64,000 nucleotides of DNA, from the sequence record MZ311865.1. One strand, 5' to 3'. Shown one piece after another: positions 867-58,894 of this stretch. Each line of letters begins with the position of its first letter. Positions within the stretch are counted from its first letter, which is position 1. The notes beneath the pieces were generated by a model, which saw only the letters and a list, made by a program, of their open reading frames with translations, was not told where the DNA came from and searched no databases. Source of the DNA: Escherichia phage vB_EcoM_LNA2. Position numbers and translations under genes: made by a program.

Positions 867-1868
867 TTATTTCAGTAAAGTAACTTCCGAGATTTCTTCC
901 CAACCATCTTTATCAGTTGAAATAAAATCTGCTACATAAAGAGCCGTACGTAATGATACATTGCGAAGACGAGATACGTTAGCCTTCATCCAGGACAATG
1001 CTTTATACGTTTCTGCATCTGTCAGACCACGTTTCTGCATCATGTCAGTAGATAATATTACATCTTCAACTCGAACCATAATCTCTTCATTAGAGTGTAC
1101 TCCAAGGTCGAGATACACTGAACGAGATACTAAAGCTTGAAGGTGTGGAGCAAGTTTCGAACCACGTTCTAACTCTTTATCGATATCAACGTTTGTAATG
1201 AAAACGATAGTACCTTCAAACTCAAATTCTTTATCAATACCCTTATCATCGAGATAAGATGACGCAGTGCTCCAACAAACTTTGCGTTTATCTCCAGTAT
1301 CTAATGCTGCTTTAAGAAGGTTCAAGATGTCCATATCTGAGAATACGTCAACGTCGTCGATTAAGAGAACGCTGTCTGCATCACGGTTGAGCCAAAGTTG
1401 TTCGTAAAGGCCGATACCAGAGATTTTACCATTAATGCTTTTGTATTTGATGAAACCGTTATCATTAGCATTATTAAGTGCTTTATCCAGAGAATACGTC
1501 TTACCAATACCAGCTGCACCTGAAATAATGAGTGAACGAATTTTGCCATCGATAATGCCATTCGTCATCATGTTCATTACTTTAAAGCGTTTGTTGATAC
1601 GAGTTTTCATATCTTCAGTGCTTTCAACAACTGCAACTGGTGATGTCTCAACTCCTTCCATTACGATGTCTGATTTGAAGACCCATACTCCACGTTCAGA
1701 ACCATCAATCATAACGAAAATTTTACCATCACCTAAGTGGGAACATTCAGGATTAAGCTTTGCCGGGAACCAGGTCTTTGTGGCAACATAAGAACCAGAG
1801 ATTTCGTTATTACGATAGATACCTTTTTTGATTTGAACGTTGAACATTTTATTCTCCAATTTACTCAT
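867..1868 (-). CDS. P-loop NTPase (AAA-like ATPase), function unknown
   Basis: Translation has Walker A GAAGIGKTYS and Walker B-like VLLIDDVD; early promoter immediately upstream (1886-1914). Confidence 0.7.
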   Translation of the reverse strand: MSKLENKMFNVQIKKGIYRNNEISGSYVATKTWFPAKLNPECSHLGDGKIFVMIDGSERGVWVFKSDIVMEGVETSPVAVVESTEDMKTRINKRFKVMNMMTNGIIDGKIRSLIISGAAGIGKTYSLDKALNNANDNGFIKYKSINGKISGIGLYEQLWLNRDADSVLLIDDVDVFSDMDILNLLKAALDTGDKRKVCWSTASSYLDDKGIDKEFEFEGTIVFITNVDIDKELERGSKLAPHLQALVSRSVYLDLGVHSNEEIMVRVEDVILSTDMMQKRGLTDAETYKALSWMKANVSRLRNVSLRTALYVADFISTDKDGWEEISEVTLLK

Positions 1869-1916: not shown

Positions 1917-2135
1917 TTATTTGCGACGAGATTTTTTGGTAAGAGGTTGAAAGAACACTGCTTTACCGGCTGGGGTTAAGGTGACTCGTAATGCATTACC
2001 GATTCCTAAGGATGCTTTAACTAGACCTTTAGCTTTCAGTTCACCGAATGCTTGACGTTGGTCTGCATCACGAGTGTTAACCATAAGACCTTTATCACCT
2101 GCTTCACGAATCATTTCTAACATTTTGGTTTTCAT
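1917..2135 (-). CDS. small basic hypothetical protein (72 aa)
   Basis: Track ORF 1917..2192 starts at a GTG inside the upstream promoter; the internal ATG at 2135 follows GAGGAG (MKTKMLEMIREAGDKG...), so the shorter start is preferred. Confidence 0.45.
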   Translation of the reverse strand: MKTKMLEMIREAGDKGLMVNTRDADQRQAFGELKAKGLVKASLGIGNALRVTLTPAGKAVFFQPLTKKSRRK

Positions 2136-2163
2136 TTTGTTCTCCTCTTGTTTTGATAGGTCT

Positions 2164-2192
2164 ATAATAACATATCCTAAAAGCGTGTACAC
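2164..2192 (-). promoter_or_regulatory. early promoter (variant -35 GTGTAC)
   Basis: Minus strand GTGTAC, 17 bp, TATTAT; upstream of the 72-aa gene. Confidence 0.45.
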
Positions 2193-2212: not shown

Positions 2213-2240
2213 ACCCCCTAAAGGGACCCGAAGGTCCCCA
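2213..2240 (-). terminator. hairpin terminator candidate
   Basis: GGGACC-cgaa-GGTCCC stem-loop preceded by CCCCCTAA, downstream of the exported-protein gene; the same architecture recurs at 20664-20686. Confidence 0.45.
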
Positions 2241-2243
2241 CAT

Positions 2244-2525
2244 TTACTTATCGCACTTAGCAACATAATTAGGCATATCACAGAATACGGAGCGAGTAAC
2301 TACTCGACCCTTTGACCATGCTTCAGTTGCTTGTCCGGCAGTGCTATTAATATAGCTTGATTTGATATTCTCAATACCCTGAGAATGTGATGCATTTACC
2401 GAACCGTTGGAAGGCCCAGAAGACTGGTTACCACCAGCTCCTGCACTACCGCTGGCTGCACCCGTGGTAGCACCAACAGAGAACGCCATCATTACTGCGA
2501 ATAAACCAATTACTAATTTTTTCAT
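2244..2525 (-). CDS. small exported Gly/Ser-rich protein (93 aa)
   Basis: N-terminal signal-peptide-like segment MKKLVIGLFAVMMAFSVGA followed by a low-complexity G/S/A/N-rich region; hairpin terminator just downstream (2213-2240). Confidence 0.55.
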   Translation of the reverse strand: MKKLVIGLFAVMMAFSVGATTGAASGSAGAGGNQSSGPSNGSVNASHSQGIENIKSSYINSTAGQATEAWSKGRVVTRSVFCDMPNYVAKCDK

Positions 2526-2556
2526 ATTTACCTCAAGTGAATGGTTATTTATCTAT

Positions 2557-3546
2557 TTATTTATAGTAAGAATTATGATTTTCGAGATAGACTTGCTCAA
2601 GGAAATCATCCCAGAAACTCATATCTACTTTTTGTTGCATACCGTTCTTAGCGGCTTGTTCTGATGCTTGTTCAACTTGGTCAACGATATCTTCTAGGAA
2701 TTCTTGTACAGTTTTAAACGTATGTTTACCAAGCTTAACATCGAGAATAAATGGAGCATCCTGAAGCGGGTAAACCAGGTCACCGGTTTTGTAAATTTCC
2801 AATAATTGAAGTCCACCACGACATGCATGACTCAATGCTTTCCAGTCAATACCTTCGTTGGCTTCCGCCTTACGAGCACGTTCACCATAGTTCTCTTCCA
2901 GTTTAACCAGGATGGCATTGAACTCTTTATTGGTTAACGTGTCTTGGAATTTACGGTCCAACAGATTATAGAATGTTTGCTTACCTGTTTTCTCGTTTTC
3001 GGTTTCAACCCATGAAGCAAATTCACCTACAGGCAGAACGTTCTTCATATGTGATAAACGAATTACTGCACCATTATCAAAGTATTGTCCCCATTCATTA
3101 GAACGTTTAAGGGCTTGACGAAGAACAGCCAGTCGAGAACCCTTGACACCATATTTAGAAGCTTGCTTACGGACATACCCTAAATAAGATTTCATGTTAG
3201 TGGTATAGAAACGAGACCTGTTATCTTGAATATACTTCCATACATCAGGCAAATCAGATTTAACTACTAGACTTTGTGGGGTGTGAAGCATATCTAATGC
3301 GACGGTTTCACCATCTGCAGCTAGTTTAAAGAAATATTTGAGACTATACAACTCATGGTCCACGTCGTCTTTTGTGTTCTTAGAAGCAGTGTTGTTAGTG
3401 TTCTTGCTCATGTGTTCTTTAACGTTACCGGTCAAGATATCACGAGCATGAGGGACATAAATTTCTTTAAAATCGACGTCAGATTCAGGAGTAGACGTTC
3501 CATAAAGGTGGCTACCAAAGTAGCCTTTCATAATTGTTTTCATCAT
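2557..3546 (-). CDS. putative nucleotidyltransferase-fold protein (Pol-beta superfamily motif), subfamily unknown
   Basis: N-terminal GSHLYGTSTPESDVDF fits the hG[GS]-x9-13-Dh[DE]h NTase signature; a downstream hhhD strand candidate (TVALDML); start overlaps the stop of the upstream membrane-protein gene (ATGA). Confidence 0.6.
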   Translation of the reverse strand: MMKTIMKGYFGSHLYGTSTPESDVDFKEIYVPHARDILTGNVKEHMSKNTNNTASKNTKDDVDHELYSLKYFFKLAADGETVALDMLHTPQSLVVKSDLPDVWKYIQDNRSRFYTTNMKSYLGYVRKQASKYGVKGSRLAVLRQALKRSNEWGQYFDNGAVIRLSHMKNVLPVGEFASWVETENEKTGKQTFYNLLDRKFQDTLTNKEFNAILVKLEENYGERARKAEANEGIDWKALSHACRGGLQLLEIYKTGDLVYPLQDAPFILDVKLGKHTFKTVQEFLEDIVDQVEQASEQAAKNGMQQKVDMSFWDDFLEQVYLENHNSYYK

Positions 3547-4016
3547 TTAGCCTTATATTCAAGAGTAGGACAGACTTTTTCTTTACGAGCTTTAATGTAT
3601 TCACCTATTAATGATTTCTTACGTTCAATAGGCTCAAGTCCATTTTTAATTCGTTCTTGGTTTTGTGCAATGAGCTCAATTTCTTTATAATATTTTCTGT
3701 CGTTATATTTGTCTAATAACCAAGATGGACCAATTACCGCCCCGACAGCAATAAGAACCATTACTGATATTGTTAAAATGCCTATACCAATTGAAGCAGG
3801 AACTAATGTCCATAAACTACTAAAGACAAAGAATTTAGTTAAAATTTCTTGGCCAATGATTGCGGCACCTGCTAAAGTTGCAAATCCAACAATTGAAACA
3901 GCCAATACCGGAATAAACGTTTTCCAAAAATAAGCACATAATGTTTTCGGACGATTCCATGTACTATTGAACGTGGCATAAATTTTAAAGTGCCAAGAGT
4001 TTTCATTGATAATCAT
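3543..4016 (-). CDS. small integral membrane protein (2-3 predicted TM helices, charged C-terminal tail)
   Basis: Hydrophobic stretches FIPVLAVSIVGFATLAGAAIIG, FFVFSSLWTLVPASIGIGILTI, SVMVLIAVGAVIG followed by a K/E/R-rich tail; translationally coupled to the NTase-fold gene. Confidence 0.6.
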   Translation of the reverse strand: MIINENSWHFKIYATFNSTWNRPKTLCAYFWKTFIPVLAVSIVGFATLAGAAIIGQEILTKFFVFSSLWTLVPASIGIGILTISVMVLIAVGAVIGPSWLLDKYNDRKYYKEIELIAQNQERIKNGLEPIERKKSLIGEYIKARKEKVCPTLEYKAK

Positions 4017-4025
4017 AATAATTCC

Positions 4026-4556
4026 TTATTTCAAAGTCGGGATAATAGAATCGAGATAAGCTTTAAGAGCAACTGCTTCATCTTTGTCTAATGTAATGAT
4101 ATGTTGACGAAGGTCGTCAATTTGACGAATAACTACAACATCACCGTCTTCATAAGAAGGATTAACGCTCAGGACTGTTGTATAGTCAGGGTTGTCCTGA
4201 TTTGTAATAAAAGCATTACGACATTTAGCCCATTGAAGTTTGGCCTTTTTGGCTGTTTCAGATTCCATGAATTCTTTCACTTTAGCGACGAATGTTTTCC
4301 AATTATTAATAGAAAAACATTCGTCTTCTGTTTCGATATTAACCCCACTATAAAGTCCGTGATAAAAACGAACTTGAAGGTCTTCATCAATGTTAATTAC
4401 AGATGCATGGCCTGGTGGATTGAGTTTCAAAATCTTGTCCAGTTCCATAGGAAGAATAGTAACAGCATCATCTTCTTGCGTCAGAACGTAAGCATAACCG
4501 CGTTTTTCAATACATAAATCACCAAACAATTCAGTTGTTTCAATTACAGTTTTCAT
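4026..4556 (-). CDS. hypothetical protein (176 aa)
   Basis: Track ORF 4026..4568 uses a TTG; the first ATG (4556) is preferred; first large gene of the operon ending with the NTase-fold gene. Confidence 0.55.
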   Translation of the reverse strand: MKTVIETTELFGDLCIEKRGYAYVLTQEDDAVTILPMELDKILKLNPPGHASVINIDEDLQVRFYHGLYSGVNIETEDECFSINNWKTFVAKVKEFMESETAKKAKLQWAKCRNAFITNQDNPDYTTVLSVNPSYEDGDVVVIRQIDDLRQHIITLDKDEAVALKAYLDSIIPTLK

Positions 4557-4557
4557 A

Positions 4558-4737
4558 TTATTCACCAATTAAAGTTTCAACAAAATTCACCAAAGCATTC
4601 TGGCAAGCGTCAACCTGATTTTCATAAAAGTCTCCGTTATCATTTACCGCATGATAAGCTACATCATTCAAATCTGAATCGGCTTCACGTAAGTCATGGA
4701 TAAGGTCCATCAATTTATTAGCTTGTTCACGGGTCAT
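4558..4737 (-). CDS. small hypothetical protein (59 aa)
   Basis: Hand translation MTREQANKLMDLIHDLREADSDLNDVAYHAVNDNGDFYENQVDACQNALVNFVETLIGE; below the 60-aa track cutoff; stop abuts the start of the next gene. Confidence 0.3.
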   Translation of the reverse strand: MTREQANKLMDLIHDLREADSDLNDVAYHAVNDNGDFYENQVDACQNALVNFVETLIGE

Positions 4738-4872
4738 TTTACCATACTCGTTTCAATAAGATTCACTATGCCGTTTACCATGTTATAAGTAAACATCGGA
4801 TAATTGTATTGTACTACAACATAAGCGATAAGCAAAAGTTTCATTTTGTTCTCCGTTCGTTTTGATAGGACT

Positions 4873-4902
4873 ACTATAACATAGTCCTATCAAGTTGTAA
4901 AC
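4873..4902 (-). promoter_or_regulatory. T4-type early promoter with -10 embedded in a palindrome
   Basis: Minus strand GTTTAC, 18 bp, TATAGT; the -10 sits inside the inverted repeat ataggactaCTATAACATagtcctat. Confidence 0.6.
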
Positions 4903-5111
4903 TACCGATTGTGTTTTAAATGTTGATAAAGTTCTTCAACTTGTTTAGGGTCCAAAACAATTAAGTCATTTTCTTGACGAAGATAAATCCATCCCTTATC
5001 CCCAGGGCCATTTTTACAAAACATCACCGTCGTCATATCGTCATCTTCAGCGCTTTCAGGTAAAAGTTCAAGTACACCATCTTCAGATTTTCCAGTATAA
5101 TCGTAAAGCAT
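4902..5111 (-). CDS. hypothetical protein (69 aa)
   Basis: Track ORF 4902..5138; internal ATG at 5111 preceded by GAGGAT is preferred. Confidence 0.45.
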   Translation of the reverse strand: MLYDYTGKSEDGVLELLPESAEDDDMTTVMFCKNGPGDKGWIYLRQENDLIVLDPKQVEELYQHLKHNR

Positions 5112-5118
5112 AATATCC

Positions 5119-5298
5119 TCACATAATCTCGTTAACATACATTTGCAATTCGGTGTGCGTATCAGCCATCTTTTTCATAGCTCTGTTAATGTCGATGTCC
5201 CCATCTTCGCAACCATGAGCATTTTCCCAATCAGATACCGCATTAGCGTACTCTTCAATCAAAAACATTAACTTAGAAATTTTTTCTTTACGTGACAT
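5119..5298 (-). CDS. hypothetical protein (59 aa)
   Basis: Track ORF 5119..5367; in-frame ATG at 5298 preceded by GAGGAG; early promoter 5326-5354 upstream. Confidence 0.4.
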   Translation of the reverse strand: MSRKEKISKLMFLIEEYANAVSDWENAHGCEDGDIDINRAMKKMADTHTELQMYVNEIM

Positions 5299-5325
5299 AA
5301 CGTTCTCCTCTAGTAAGTAAGGTCT

Positions 5326-5354
5326 ACTATAACACAACCTGAGGAAAAGTAAAC
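5326..5354 (-). promoter_or_regulatory. T4-type early promoter
   Basis: Minus strand GTTTAC, 17 bp, TATAGT. Confidence 0.55.
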
Positions 5355-5365
5355 TGCTAAATGCC

Positions 5366-5395
5366 AAAAAGCCCCAACCTTTCGGAAGGGGCTAT
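5366..5395 (-). terminator. hairpin terminator after rI
   Basis: aaaaagccccaacctttcggaaggggctat; GC stem with a U-run on the minus-strand transcript; identical 30-mer at 21363-21392. Confidence 0.55.
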
Positions 5396-5399
5396 TAAA

Positions 5400-5702
5400 T
5401 TAGATAGATGTAGGCTCTAATTTTATTTTCATGAACTCAGCAAATTGTCTGGCGGTTTTTATGCCTTGTTCATGACATTCAAATGCATCATCACAGGGAC
5501 TATTTTTGTAATGCTTTGCCATATACTTATAGAATTTTTCAGAATTCTCGACATTTTGAATTTCAAACAAAGTATATACGTTTTTAATCCCTGATTCCAT
5601 AAAGTTATCAAAATATGGGTCGATATGTGCAGTACCAACGATAGGAGTTGTTGCTGCAAAAAACCCCAGCATCGCTATGACAGCTATCGCTCTTAAGGCC
5701 AT
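5400..5702 (-). CDS. rI: lysis-inhibition regulator rI-like protein (signal-anchor membrane protein)
   Basis: Translation MALRAIAVIAMLGFFAATT...DPYFDNFMESGI... closely resembles T4 rI as recalled; AGGAGG RBS; positioned next to tk as in T4. Confidence 0.8.
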   Translation of the reverse strand: MALRAIAVIAMLGFFAATTPIVGTAHIDPYFDNFMESGIKNVYTLFEIQNVENSEKFYKYMAKHYKNSPCDDAFECHEQGIKTARQFAEFMKIKLEPTSI

Positions 5703-5714
5703 ATAGGCCTCCTG

Positions 5715-5927
5715 TTAATTTTGGCCAGTATTTATTTTTCGCCTTTGGACGGCCTTAACATCTGTGAGGTATTTTTCCAGCTTGCGCTTGCGTGTATAAT
5801 CAGCTTTAGAACCAGTTTGACGGATATCCTCATTTAAATGAGAAATAGAATGTCCTAATTCTCTTCGGATTTCATCCAATTGGGTTACAGTAAGATTACG
5901 AAGTTGTCTTTCGTTTAATTGCTGCAT
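5715..5927 (-). CDS. hypothetical protein (70 aa)
   Basis: ORF track; compact arrangement between rI and tk. Confidence 0.45.
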
Positions 5928-5954
5928 ATATACCTCTTGGTTAGATATTAGTAT

Positions 5955-6536
5955 TTATAACAACCCTGTCAAATCATTCCAATGCTTCCGGCATAATGAC
6001 ACGTATCTATCAGTATCACCAATTTCAATTTGACTGCCATCTGTAATTGGAAGTCCGTCTTCCGTGACTCTAGCTACCATTGTAGCCTTTTTACCACAAT
6101 GACAGACACCTTTAAGTTCAACAAGCTTATCGGCAATAGCCATTAATGCTTGAGAACCTTCAAATAGATTACCTTTAAAATCTGTTCGTAGTCCATATGC
6201 CATTACTGGCACATTGTATACGTCAACAATACGACTAAGTTGATACACCTTTTCAGTAGTTAAGAACTGAGCTTCGTCAACAAATACACAATGAATATCC
6301 TTTTGTGCTGCAGCCCATTTATAGAATTCAAAGATGTCCATGTCTTTTGTAATTATATTGGCATCCTGACGAATACCAATACGAGAGACTATTTCACCTT
6401 TTGAATCACGAGTATCAATAGCCGGTTTAAGAACTAATACACCCATGCCACGTTCTTTATAGTTATGTGCAGCAGTAAGTAATGAAGCAGACTTACCGGC
6501 ATTCATAGCGGCATATGTAAAAATTAAACTAGCCAT
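5955..6536 (-). CDS. tk: thymidine kinase
   Basis: P-loop AAMNAGKS near N-terminus, FVDEAQF motif and C-terminal Cys cluster (CHCGKKA...C) typical of TK1-type thymidine kinases; matches T4 tk organisation. Confidence 0.9.
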   Translation of the reverse strand: MASLIFTYAAMNAGKSASLLTAAHNYKERGMGVLVLKPAIDTRDSKGEIVSRIGIRQDANIITKDMDIFEFYKWAAAQKDIHCVFVDEAQFLTTEKVYQLSRIVDVYNVPVMAYGLRTDFKGNLFEGSQALMAIADKLVELKGVCHCGKKATMVARVTEDGLPITDGSQIEIGDTDRYVSLCRKHWNDLTGLL

Positions 6537-6545
6537 AAGAGTCCC

Positions 6546-6728
6546 TTATAGTGAATTCACGTAGTCAATGAGTTCTTGTTCTTTCCTGTCAAATGATTCC
6601 ATCAATGCGTGATATTCTTCGTCCGTCAAAGGAGCATATTCATCGTACGCATTGGTGGCTGCTTGTTCATCCAATAGGTCATGGATAAGTTCGAACAGTT
6701 TAGCTTTCTCTTCTTTAGTTAATTTCAT
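6546..6728 (-). CDS. hypothetical acidic protein (60 aa)
   Basis: ORF track; tight spacing after tk. Confidence 0.4.
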   Translation of the reverse strand: MKLTKEEKAKLFELIHDLLDEQAATNAYDEYAPLTDEEYHALMESFDRKEQELIDYVNSL

Positions 6729-6937
6729 TTAGGTTCACCTTCTTTAACGAAATCTGGGTAAGGGTAAAATCCTGAGTAAAATCCTTCACCTTTATGATTG
6801 CTACAACCTTTGTTCGAACAGTAACACCAATAATCAAAATCACAAGCCATTTCGTCATTGCATAAAGCAAAAACTACAGGCCATTCGCATTTTTCGCATT
6901 TAGCACCTGTAAGAATTTTTGTTTGGCTCATAACCAT
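6725..6937 (-). CDS. hypothetical Cys-rich protein (70 aa), possible metal-binding
   Basis: Multiple Cys pairs (CEKCEW, CNDEMAC, CYCSNKGC); overlaps neighbours by 4 nt. Confidence 0.45.
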   Translation of the reverse strand: MVMSQTKILTGAKCEKCEWPVVFALCNDEMACDFDYWCYCSNKGCSNHKGEGFYSGFYPYPDFVKEGEPK

Positions 6938-7155
6938 GTCACCTTTAAGCAGTATTCTTCTACATGCTGTTTACGACCTTTCTTATCAATAAAGGTATAT
7001 TCAACGAATGTTCCAATGTAGTCTTTATCTACATCATGTGGACTATTAATTGGACATTTAGTACGACAAATGCGTTCCCATTGACGAATAATTACTGCCT
7101 TATTCTTTGGGTCGTATGGATGTGGATAATGTATATTCATAATAATGGTTCCCAA
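6928..7155 (-). CDS. hypothetical protein (75 aa)
   Basis: ORF track; overlapping start/stop with neighbours. Confidence 0.45.
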   Translation of the reverse strand: MGTIIMNIHYPHPYDPKNKAVIIRQWERICRTKCPINSPHDVDKDYIGTFVEYTFIDKKGRKQHVEEYCLKVTWL

Positions 7156-7634
7156 TCAACAATCACAATTTCTAGTTTAGTGGAATACGTATCTAAAATC
7201 TCTTCGATGATATCCCAGTTTCCGCCACCGATACCAGCACCAATTCTTGGCATATAAATTAAAGGCTTTGTTATCTTATTCTTTCCGAATTTATTTAATT
7301 CTATTATACAATTCATTAAAGCAGAGTACTCAAAATTAGGTCCAGGCTCAAACTGTGTATAAAGATTAAAGCAATAAGCTTTATGGGTCTTAAAATATTT
7401 TTCATAAACCGAATAAGACCCGAGTTTAGATTCGTCTCCGAATTCGGTTTGAAGTTTATCGGCTTCCAGAATTTTTGGATAAGCCTTTGCTAATTGTCCT
7501 GCCACACCAGCGCCCATTGTATGAAAACAATTACACCCATGAGCAATATTATTACCTTTAGAAAACAGGGCGACAATATCGCCCTTGATATAGTTTTTAA
7601 TCACTTGCTGCAAGTCCTCTAGTATAAGAGTCAA
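7137..7634 (-). CDS. macro-domain-like protein (possible ADP-ribose binding/hydrolase)
   Basis: Motifs NNIAHGCNCFHTMGAGVAGQLAKAYP and PRIGAGIGGGNW resemble the two glycine-rich phosphate-binding loops of macro domains; assignment by pattern only. Confidence 0.5.
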   Translation of the reverse strand: MTLILEDLQQVIKNYIKGDIVALFSKGNNIAHGCNCFHTMGAGVAGQLAKAYPKILEADKLQTEFGDESKLGSYSVYEKYFKTHKAYCFNLYTQFEPGPNFEYSALMNCIIELNKFGKNKITKPLIYMPRIGAGIGGGNWDIIEEILDTYSTKLEIVIVDWEPLL

Positions 7635-57895: not shown

Positions 57896-58894
57896 TTATG
57901 ATACTAATTCAATCCATGCAGGACGCAGAACATCTTGCACCATTCGGACCAATTCTTTCTTAACAAGATTCGGATTATCAGATGATGTTAATACAATACC
58001 TTCACGAGAAGTTTCTTCCAGAATATCTTGAACAGTCAATCCCATCACTTTGCCAAAATCTTTTGGCGTTACAGCACCAATCTTAGAAATCACATTATTA
58101 ACACGATTTAATGTAACATAACAAGCTAGAACATCAAGCAAGTTTTTGTCAGTTTCGGTTAATGGAACCTGAGTTTTAATAGGCTTATCAGACTTTTTCT
58201 TTTCGCTGAATTTAGAGTTCTTGCACTTAATAGCTACACGAGTACCGTTTGGCAGCCATTTAGGGAAACAAGGTTTCAGAACATAACCTTCCGCAGTATT
58301 ATCACCAATAACATTAGCATCAAATACGCAATTATTTGCTTCGACAAGGTCTTCTGACGCAGTAGCATTATAAGCGGCTAAGACGGAATCAAGGTCGTTT
58401 GGAATCATGATAAGAGCGTCAAATGTTCCACGACCAAGCATTGGTGCCATTTTAAAACCAAATTCATTACAGAAATCTTGCATTTCGTAATCGGTCAAAT
58501 ACGTATTATCACCACTTTCTGTATTGATAAGGATATCGAACACATAAAAATCTTTTTCACCGTAGTCAACACCTTTCTGGATTCCACCACCGGCGAATTC
58601 ACCGAATACTTGATATGATACGGCTCGAGCTGTATACATGAATTCCTGAACGGCTTTAATAGCTTTATCATACTTCTTGAGTACGATTTCATAACCATAA
58701 AAATCTTCTGCTGGAAGAATAGGGCCTGTGCGCTTGGCGCATGTGACGTTGTCACGTTCAATTATTAACGAGAAGTTGGTCCCATGGATTTTCTCACGTG
58801 CTACCCAAACACCAGTAGTCAAACCATTAGTGTAGAGTTTTTCAATAAACTTAGAGTTGTAGTGGTTTTCAAGACTGCTGTATTTCTTAAACAT
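57896..58894 (-). CDS. rnlB: RNA ligase 2
   Basis: [21 protein letters not shown]...[14 protein letters not shown]... with the KxHG nucleotidyltransferase lysine motif; resembles T4 Rnl2 as recalled. Confidence 0.9.

Follow-up and report, generated by a model that had tools for sequence, protein, structure and literature searches.

We analysed a window of 64,000 nt from Escherichia phage vB_EcoM_LNA2 (MZ311865.1); the window is the whole stretch of DNA studied here, and all coordinates refer to it unless another locus is named. The subject of this work is a row of six open reading frames (ORFs) on the minus strand between positions 2244 and 4844, which includes genes for a 329-amino-acid (aa) nucleotidyltransferase (NTase) and for a 157-aa membrane protein (Table 1). 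The initial annotation of this region had described an early operon that couples the two proteins and had considered three explanations, namely a signalling or toxin-type module, a host-takeover or anti-defence module, or simply a conserved gene of the T4 mobD region. We find that 2244-4844 is an early, tightly packed transcription unit that runs from mobD.2 to nrdC.11 in a Mosigvirus-type T-even phage. The NTase is orthologous to T4 NrdC.11 and a member of the RlaP family. On balance, and with moderate confidence, we read the region as a mobD.2-nrdC.11 early unit with an RlaP-type RNA 3'-end repair NTase, in which the membrane protein is a separate synteny neighbour.

The six ORFs lie at the coordinates first described for them, and their tight coupling was borne out. 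ATGA overlaps join the 36-aa to the 59-aa ORF and the 157-aa to the 329-aa ORF, and the remaining intergenic gaps measure 1 nt, 9 nt and 31 nt. Because each ORF has a strong match in PHROGs (E 1e-20 to 6e-126), we regard all of them as real genes and not as chance reading frames. Mosigvirus-type and related T-even phages match the 3-kb stretch at 95-99% identity.

The NrdC.11 orthologue and its place in T-even phages

The 329-aa protein is 77% identical over its full length to T4 NrdC.11 (NP_049709, 'nucleotidyltransferase'). It occupies the same slot between NrdC.10 and the mobD.1 block, on the same strand and in the same early context. Several neighbours are conserved as well: NrdC.10 is 77%, MobD.1 46% and MobD.2 65% identical to the respective T4 protein, and rI and tk are found upstream. 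The order tk - rI - MobD.1 - (membrane gene) - NrdC.11 - NrdC.10 is common to the window, T4, T6, a Mosigvirus and an Acinetobacter T4-like phage, and this T4-like gene order is also seen across 30 loci from IMG/VR. Thus, the last of the three initial explanations, a conserved and syntenic ORF of the T4 mobD region, has proved correct.

The NTase is conserved in T4 and T6, whereas the membrane gene is absent in T4 and present in T6. In T4, the gene directly 5' of nrdC.11 is the HNH homing endonuclease gene mobD, whose insertion site is given as nrdC.11/mobD.1 in a review of T4 mobile elements (PMC2988022). In the phage studied here and in T6 the 157-aa membrane gene takes this place, the T6 copy being 49% identical and immediately 5' of its NrdC.11. 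The 93-aa and 91-aa ORFs that this phage has between nrdC.11 and nrdC.10 are likewise missing from T4. None of the three ORFs of 93, 91 and 157 aa has a counterpart in the T4 stretch that was searched (42-62 kb, nrdH to vs.1; locus L001). The slot 5' of nrdC.11 is a hot spot for homing endonucleases, as seen when window positions 3543-4016 are set against T4 (L001 14430-15209) and against locus L021. Phages of the VR26 type have kept the membrane gene and carry approximately 760 bp of extra sequence, annotated as mobD, before nrdC.11. The nrdC.11-mobD.3 block is dispensable, as T4 can lose it under laboratory conditions (PMC9825161).

The 329-aa protein is a member of the Pol-beta superfamily of NTases and, within it, of the RlaP family. 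Pfam assigns it to PF10127 (RlaP) with an E value of 1.2e-12 and a score of 48.6 bits, above the gathering cut-off of 23. The same family is precomputed on each of the 120 close homologues listed, and at least one protein that is 100% identical to the one described here is already public. An exhaustive search of representative proteins returned 3246 clusters at E<=1e-3, mostly full length with around 320 aa, and homologues of the NTase were found in 1572 records of the phage collection. The assignment agrees with the literature, in which NrdC.11 was recognised as a COG3541 nucleotidyltransferase in 2006 (PMC1524935) and T4 NrdC.11 has been assigned to cluster 5 of PF10127 (PMC12776372). Many GenBank records of the NrdC.11 orthologue carry the name 'thioredoxin', which most likely comes from the gene name nrdC.x; the protein has no thioredoxin domain.

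The active site is intact. Conservation was judged from an alignment of 71 homologues with 34-52% identity to the query. The motif G11-S12-x9-S22-D23-V24-D25 was confirmed, and with it the Pol-beta signature (GS-x9-SDVD) that had first drawn attention to the protein. G11, S12, S22, D23 and D25 are invariant in the alignment, and so are D63, Y132, K236, R243 and G273. The initial annotation had further assumed a downstream hydrophobic strand that ends in an aspartate (hhhD), and in this detail it probably did not hold. The residue in question, D85 of the sequence 'VALD', is conserved in at least 90% of the 71 homologues, but it sits in a predicted helix (81-87). Since D63 is invariant and opens strand 62-68 in the AlphaFold2 (AF2) model, whereas D85 lies in a helix, the model makes D63 the more likely third catalytic carboxylate.

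The AF2 model was computed from the same alignment and reaches a predicted local distance difference test score (pLDDT) of 93.7 and a predicted TM-score (pTM) of 0.81. It has an NTase fold, with an N-terminal alpha/beta domain at 1-115 and a helical domain at 119-300, within which a small beta insert occupies 177-201; the terminal helix spans 309-328. The best structural matches are NTases, aminoglycoside, lincosamide and protein AMPylating enzymes are included in the hits, and no cGAS or DncV fold was among the structural matches. The kanamycin nucleotidyltransferase ANT(4') and the NTase-like protein 3c18 share 8-11% identity with the phage protein at low TM-scores of 0.24-0.38, with no sequence-family relationship. 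No match to the NTase was found in PADLOC at E<=1, and PADLOC and NCBIfam gave no usable match for any protein of the operon. The model of the MntA antitoxin scored 13 bits on the 329-aa protein against a cut-off of 60, and no HEPN domain was detected in any operon protein with Pfam or PADLOC.

Table 1. Features of the mobD.2-nrdC.11 unit, listed in the direction of transcription.
Feature	Position	Strand	Basis
T4 early-type sigma-70 promoter-like site	4873..4901	-	TTTACA-17 nt-TATAGT, TG-extended, 10/12 matches; 5' of 36-aa ORF
36-aa small hydrophobic protein, T4 MobD.2 homologue	4734..4844	-	phrog_3515 E 1e-20; 65% identity over 34 aa
59-aa acidic protein, DUF7438	4558..4737	-	PF24219 E 3.5e-16; phrog_4859
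176-aa MobD.1/y05I-family protein	4026..4556	-	PF24449 E 7.5e-41, PF24448 E 3.2e-20; 46% identity to T4 MobD.1
157-aa membrane protein, PHROG 944	3543..4016	-	phrog_944 E 2.2e-52
329-aa nucleotidyltransferase, NrdC.11 orthologue, RlaP (PF10127)	2557..3546	-	PF10127 48.6 bits; phrog_388 E 6e-126; 77% identity
93-aa protein with signal-peptide-like N-terminus, Gly/Ser-rich, two C-terminal Cys	2244..2525	-	phrog_2243 E 4e-38
GGGGACC-UUCG-GGUCCC 7-bp hairpin	2222..2239	-	after last ORF; -12.9 kcal/mol

The membrane protein and its gene neighbourhoods

Over its full length the 157-aa protein belongs to PHROG 944 ('membrane protein'), a family with no characterised member that includes EcT6_00095 of T6 and gp169 of ICP1. 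It shares with these the cysteines C27 and C149 and the motifs YFWK and KARKxKxCP. No family was found for it in Pfam, NCBIfam or PADLOC. Homologues were detected by tblastn in 1265 phage records, including the non-T4-like Pakpunavirus and ICP1. Those in a large protein collection all lie on phage-sized contigs or carry phage names, and the few named after bacteria are on such contigs, too. Invariance among 58 diverse members is limited to M1, C27, K147 and C149; W8, Y29, K142, A143 and P150 come close to it, and the membrane segment is free to vary. The AF2 model of the protein (pLDDT 77.5) has strands at 2-4 and 153-155 and helices at 26-62, 68-124 and 136-148. As modelled, the protein is a two-helix transmembrane hairpin. 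Of the two to three membrane helices that had been predicted at the outset the model supports two long ones, not three. In the analysis of hydropathy and charge both termini are net positive, and the conserved N-terminal and C-terminal motifs are therefore probably both cytoplasmic. A fold search of BFVD with the model returned uncharacterised phage relatives only, and a profile search of the PDB with the family gave nothing but generic membrane-helix noise.

To see whether NTase and membrane protein form a module, we took 73 IMG/VR loci with a homologue of the membrane gene and scanned the sequence on either side of it with an NTase-family profile. RlaP was found within 6 kb downstream in 30 of these loci and nowhere nearby in the other 43. 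With the exception of one contig (L056), all loci with RlaP have NrdC.10 and/or tk/rI as neighbours, as is typical of T4-like phages. NTase and membrane genes abut in most loci of the E. coli type. Between 0.3 and 1.3 kb of other small genes separate them in the Yersinia (L030), Klebsiella, Serratia, Enterobacter, Erwinia and Acinetobacter types. Clustering of the membrane proteins at >=40% identity yielded 37 lineages. RlaP lies within 6 kb in 10 of them and an Rnl1-type ligase in 3, and the remaining 24 have neither within this distance. In ICP1 the gene that follows the membrane protein is similar to deoxynucleoside monophosphate (dNMP) kinases, and for the neighbours of the membrane gene on jumbo-phage contigs and in locus L031 no Pfam family was found. 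Since T4 has the NTase alone, and most lineages of the membrane protein have no RlaP nearby, the pair is not a co-inherited two-gene system; it is a synteny feature of T-even-like phages.

Some of the loci deserve a separate description. On contig L056 (IMG/VR, 159.8 kb) RlaP lies between two paralogues of the membrane protein (3590-6396), an arrangement that suggests a local duplication around the NTase. In Pakpunavirus (L004 1443-5264, and also L050, L057, L064, L069 and L070) the membrane protein lies inside an apparent healing-and-sealing cassette. This consists of an HD hydrolase, a metallophosphoesterase, a helix-turn-helix (HTH) protein, the membrane protein, an Rnl1-type ligase (PF09511) and an AAA_33 kinase, and is followed by the NAD-salvage genes for phosphoribosyl pyrophosphate (PRPP) synthetase and nicotinamide phosphoribosyltransferase (NAMPT). 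In locus L041 a 343-aa protein (6454-7506; phrog_24943, 'DNA polymerase') is encoded directly downstream of the membrane-protein homologue. Its FGDIDVLV motif makes it a candidate Pol-beta-like protein. We considered it as a divergent RlaP and rejected this, as hhalign found no relation to the RlaP alignment.

Signals and small genes of the unit

The promoter-like site listed in Table 1 lies just beyond the stretch that had been described initially. Promoter-like sites are no more numerous in the region than shuffled sequences lead one to expect, and the case for this site rests on its position and its T4-early-like form. At the other end of the unit the annotation had placed a terminator. A hairpin is indeed present after the last ORF, but only three U follow it, and its energy is ordinary compared with shuffled sequences (z -0.86). 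Because the energy is not unusual, we call it a possible weak terminator or RNA-stabilising hairpin. Behind it a further promoter-like site of early type (2191-2164) is found, which is the own site of a basic protein gene. This gene (1917-2192, minus strand; phrog_6001) probably starts at ATG 2135 and then encodes around 72 aa. Together with the 93-aa gene (2244-2525, minus strand) it forms a pair of small accessory ORFs between nrdC.11 and nrdC.10 that is without equivalent in T4.

The MobD.2-like, DUF7438, MobD.1/y05I and secreted 93-aa proteins are typical small accessory genes of the early region of T-even phages. For the 36-aa ORF a role as a leader peptide had been proposed, which we rejected; it encodes a conserved protein of a family (phrog_3515) that is common to T4 MobD.2. 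The 59-aa family carries the label 'helicase loader' in PHROGs, probably an annotation artefact. A paralogue-like match to the 59-aa protein, with 31% identity, adjoins tk in Mosigvirus phi25-307 (L002 8548-8721), and its counterpart in the window would, by synteny, be a 60-aa ORF at 6546-6728. The length of 176 aa is counted from ATG 4556; the mechanically called ORF begins at TTG 4568 and has 180 aa. Pfam labels this MobD.1/y05I family as a putative transcription factor. The 93-aa protein has a YbgS-like match in Pfam that is below threshold. The orthologue of NrdC.10 (867-1868, minus strand, 333 aa) has matches to P-loop/AAA and STAND-type NTPases, all of them sub-threshold, and a weak C-terminal HTH match. 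NrdC.10 accompanies NrdC.11 in most of the T4-like loci examined.

Proposed RNA 3'-end repair and alternative explanations

The biochemistry of RlaP has been described for bacterial enzymes. Two RlaP enzymes from Pseudomonas extend the 3'-OH of RNA by one or two nucleoside monophosphates (NMPs) or dNMPs; they favour the 5' half of a cleaved-tRNA mimic, favour Mn2+ and are inactive on DNA or protein (PMC12776372, a preprint of December 2025). When a tRNA half is short of one nucleotide, pre-treatment with RlaP partly restores aminoacylation after ligation (PMC12776372). The crystal structure shows an N-terminal NTase domain and a C-terminal helical domain (PMC12776372). The authors propose that RlaP counteracts 'smart' ribotoxins such as RloC, enzymes that cleave a tRNA and then excise a nucleotide (PMC12776372). 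Similarly, in a comparison of jumbo phages, phage RlaP was predicted to replace the bases lost to RloC-type enzymes before ligation, and its distribution was found to track that of RNA ligases (PMC7824862).

The phage protein and the bacterial enzymes (PfRlaP and PaRlaP) belong to the same Pfam family and share the conserved carboxylates. Judged by the secondary structure of the AF2 model, they also appear to have a layout in common, in which the NTase domain precedes a helical domain that closes with a terminal helix. They differ in that the phage protein falls into cluster 5 and the bacterial ones into cluster 1a, and that the beta insert at 177-201 is extra in the phage protein. The phage gene neither lies between rtcB and rtcA nor adjoins any ligase gene. 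The family takes its name from an RNA ligase in the gene neighbourhood, a trait of some members only. However, an orthologue of RnlB (RNA ligase 2; 76% identity over 334 aa to T4 RnlB) is encoded at 57899-58894 on the minus strand, and therefore the same genome holds a 5'-phosphate ligase that is able to use a product with a 3'-OH.

These comparisons point to the following scheme. D23, D25 and a third carboxylate, probably D63, would bind two divalent ions, with Mn2+ being preferred by the bacterial enzymes. The NrdC.11 orthologue would then extend the 3'-OH of a broken RNA by one or two NMPs without a template. In this way a nucleotide that had been taken by an excising anticodon nuclease such as RloC might be put back, and phage 5'-phosphate RNA ligases, RnlB for example, would reseal the tRNA at its normal length. 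By analogy with the bacterial homologues, addition to RNA 3' ends is the most likely activity of the phage enzyme, and a role in counter-defence is plausible. The anti-defence idea of the initial annotation survives only in this different form, as a plausible repair of RNA 3' ends against anticodon nucleases.

Several points weigh against an RlaP-type repair enzyme with an unrelated membrane neighbour. The PF10127 match spans only residues 7-138 (profile positions 23-145 of 249), and no relevant entry for a solved RlaP structure came up when the PDB was searched by sequence and by profile. The operon contains no RNA ligase; the nearest, RnlB, is about 55 kb away. For phage RlaP enzymes the literature reports neither an activity nor a phenotype, and the only source of the bacterial data is one preprint whose authors themselves call the in vivo role a proposal (PMC12776372). 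Lastly, E. coli T-even phages have conserved the ATGA overlap of the NTase gene with the membrane gene.

Some alternatives give the membrane protein a share in the function. In a module similar to Hailong or to the cyclic oligonucleotide-based anti-phage signalling system (CBASS), the product of the NTase, an oligonucleotide or a cyclic nucleotide, would gate or activate the small membrane protein. The phage might use it as an abortive or exclusion device, or as a decoy that holds a host HalA-type channel closed. We consider this highly improbable. In Hailong, HalA is a transmembrane DNA-gated channel and HalB a poly-dA-synthesising NTase, and both are encoded in bacterial defence islands; here both are phage genes that are not co-inherited and separate freely, as T4 with its lone NTase and the 24 of 37 lineages with neither RlaP nor ligase near the membrane gene demonstrate. 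Sequence similarity to either component is lacking, and even at E<=10 the profiles of the two phage proteins retrieved neither HalA nor HalB. The resemblance to HalB is at fold level only (14% identity), with a Z-score near those of 3c18 (8.9) and kanamycin NTase (7.4). The phage NTase is approximately 110 residues longer than HalB, is assigned positively to another family, RlaP, and has no PADLOC match. In addition, a protein of 157 aa with two helices seems too small to form a HalA-type tetrameric channel with a cytoplasmic oligo-dA-binding crown. The likeness to CBASS is superficial and goes no further than a Pol-beta-superfamily NTase next to a small membrane protein; no model of a cGAS/DncV-like NTase (CD-NTase) or of an effector matches, and the 157-aa protein has no recognisable nucleotide-sensing domain. 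Of the type VII MNT-HEPN systems, neither the MntA-family NTase nor the HEPN partner is matched in the operon. The proposed signalling or toxin module, whether CBASS or NTase toxin-antitoxin pair, is not supported, given an NTase of the RlaP family, no CD-NTase or MntA match and two genes that separate.

The membrane protein could also be a general partner of phage RNA-end repair enzymes, for example an anchor or regulator of RlaP or of an RNA ligase, and the healing-and-sealing cassette of Pakpunavirus (five IMG/VR loci and one GenBank genome) speaks for it. Two more contigs have an Rnl1-type ligase at 1.0 and 3.3 kb, one has the Pol-beta-like phrog_24943 protein directly downstream, and one has RlaP between two membrane paralogues. 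Yet 24 of the 37 lineages have no such enzyme within 6 kb, the neighbour in ICP1 is dNMP-kinase-like and those in jumbo phages have no recognisable family. With 3-4 repair genes per ~170-kb genome and 7 kb considered around each membrane gene, a rough estimate gives 1-2 chance co-locations in ~12 independent lineages; early genes cluster anyway, and T4 repairs RNA without the membrane protein. A general partnership is quite unlikely in our view, and we take the co-location with repair cassettes as a weak lead and not as a finding. That the PHROG 944 protein with its invariant pair of cysteines is a real partner, be it as tether or regulator of RlaP in T-even phages and of the Rnl1-type ligase in Pakpunavirus, or as a small Hailong-like channel under the control of an NTase product, we hold to be very unlikely. 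A different kind of alternative leaves the RlaP fold in place and assigns it another task in the phage, such as tagging or blocking the 3' ends of host RNA during shut-off, or an MntA-like nucleotidylylation of a toxin or defence protein. The C-terminal half lies beyond the Pfam model and contains the lineage-specific beta insert, the activity of the phage enzyme rests on analogy, and NTases with such a fold use very diverse acceptors. Against this stand the bacterial RlaP enzymes, which labelled neither proteins nor DNA (PMC12776372), the MntA score far below its cut-off in an operon with no HEPN partner, and the distribution of RlaP in jumbo phages, which mirrors that of RNA ligases (PMC7824862). 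We judge such a task to be unlikely, and RlaP-type repair of RNA 3' ends remains the explanation that we prefer.

In terms of gene identity there is little new in these results, as the nucleotidyltransferase status has been known since 2006 (PMC1524935), the T4 orthologue is placed in the RlaP family (PMC12776372) and identical proteins are public. The reading of the operon as a CBASS or toxin module can be dropped. The PHROG 944 membrane family, with its invariant pair of cysteines and its presence in more than 1200 phage genomes, is a modest question in itself. Phage RlaP lends itself well to testing whether phages counter nucleotide-excising anticodon nucleases of the RloC type by adding the lost base again before ligation. 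If this is true, the arms race between T4 Pnk/Rnl1 and PrrC would be extended by one step.

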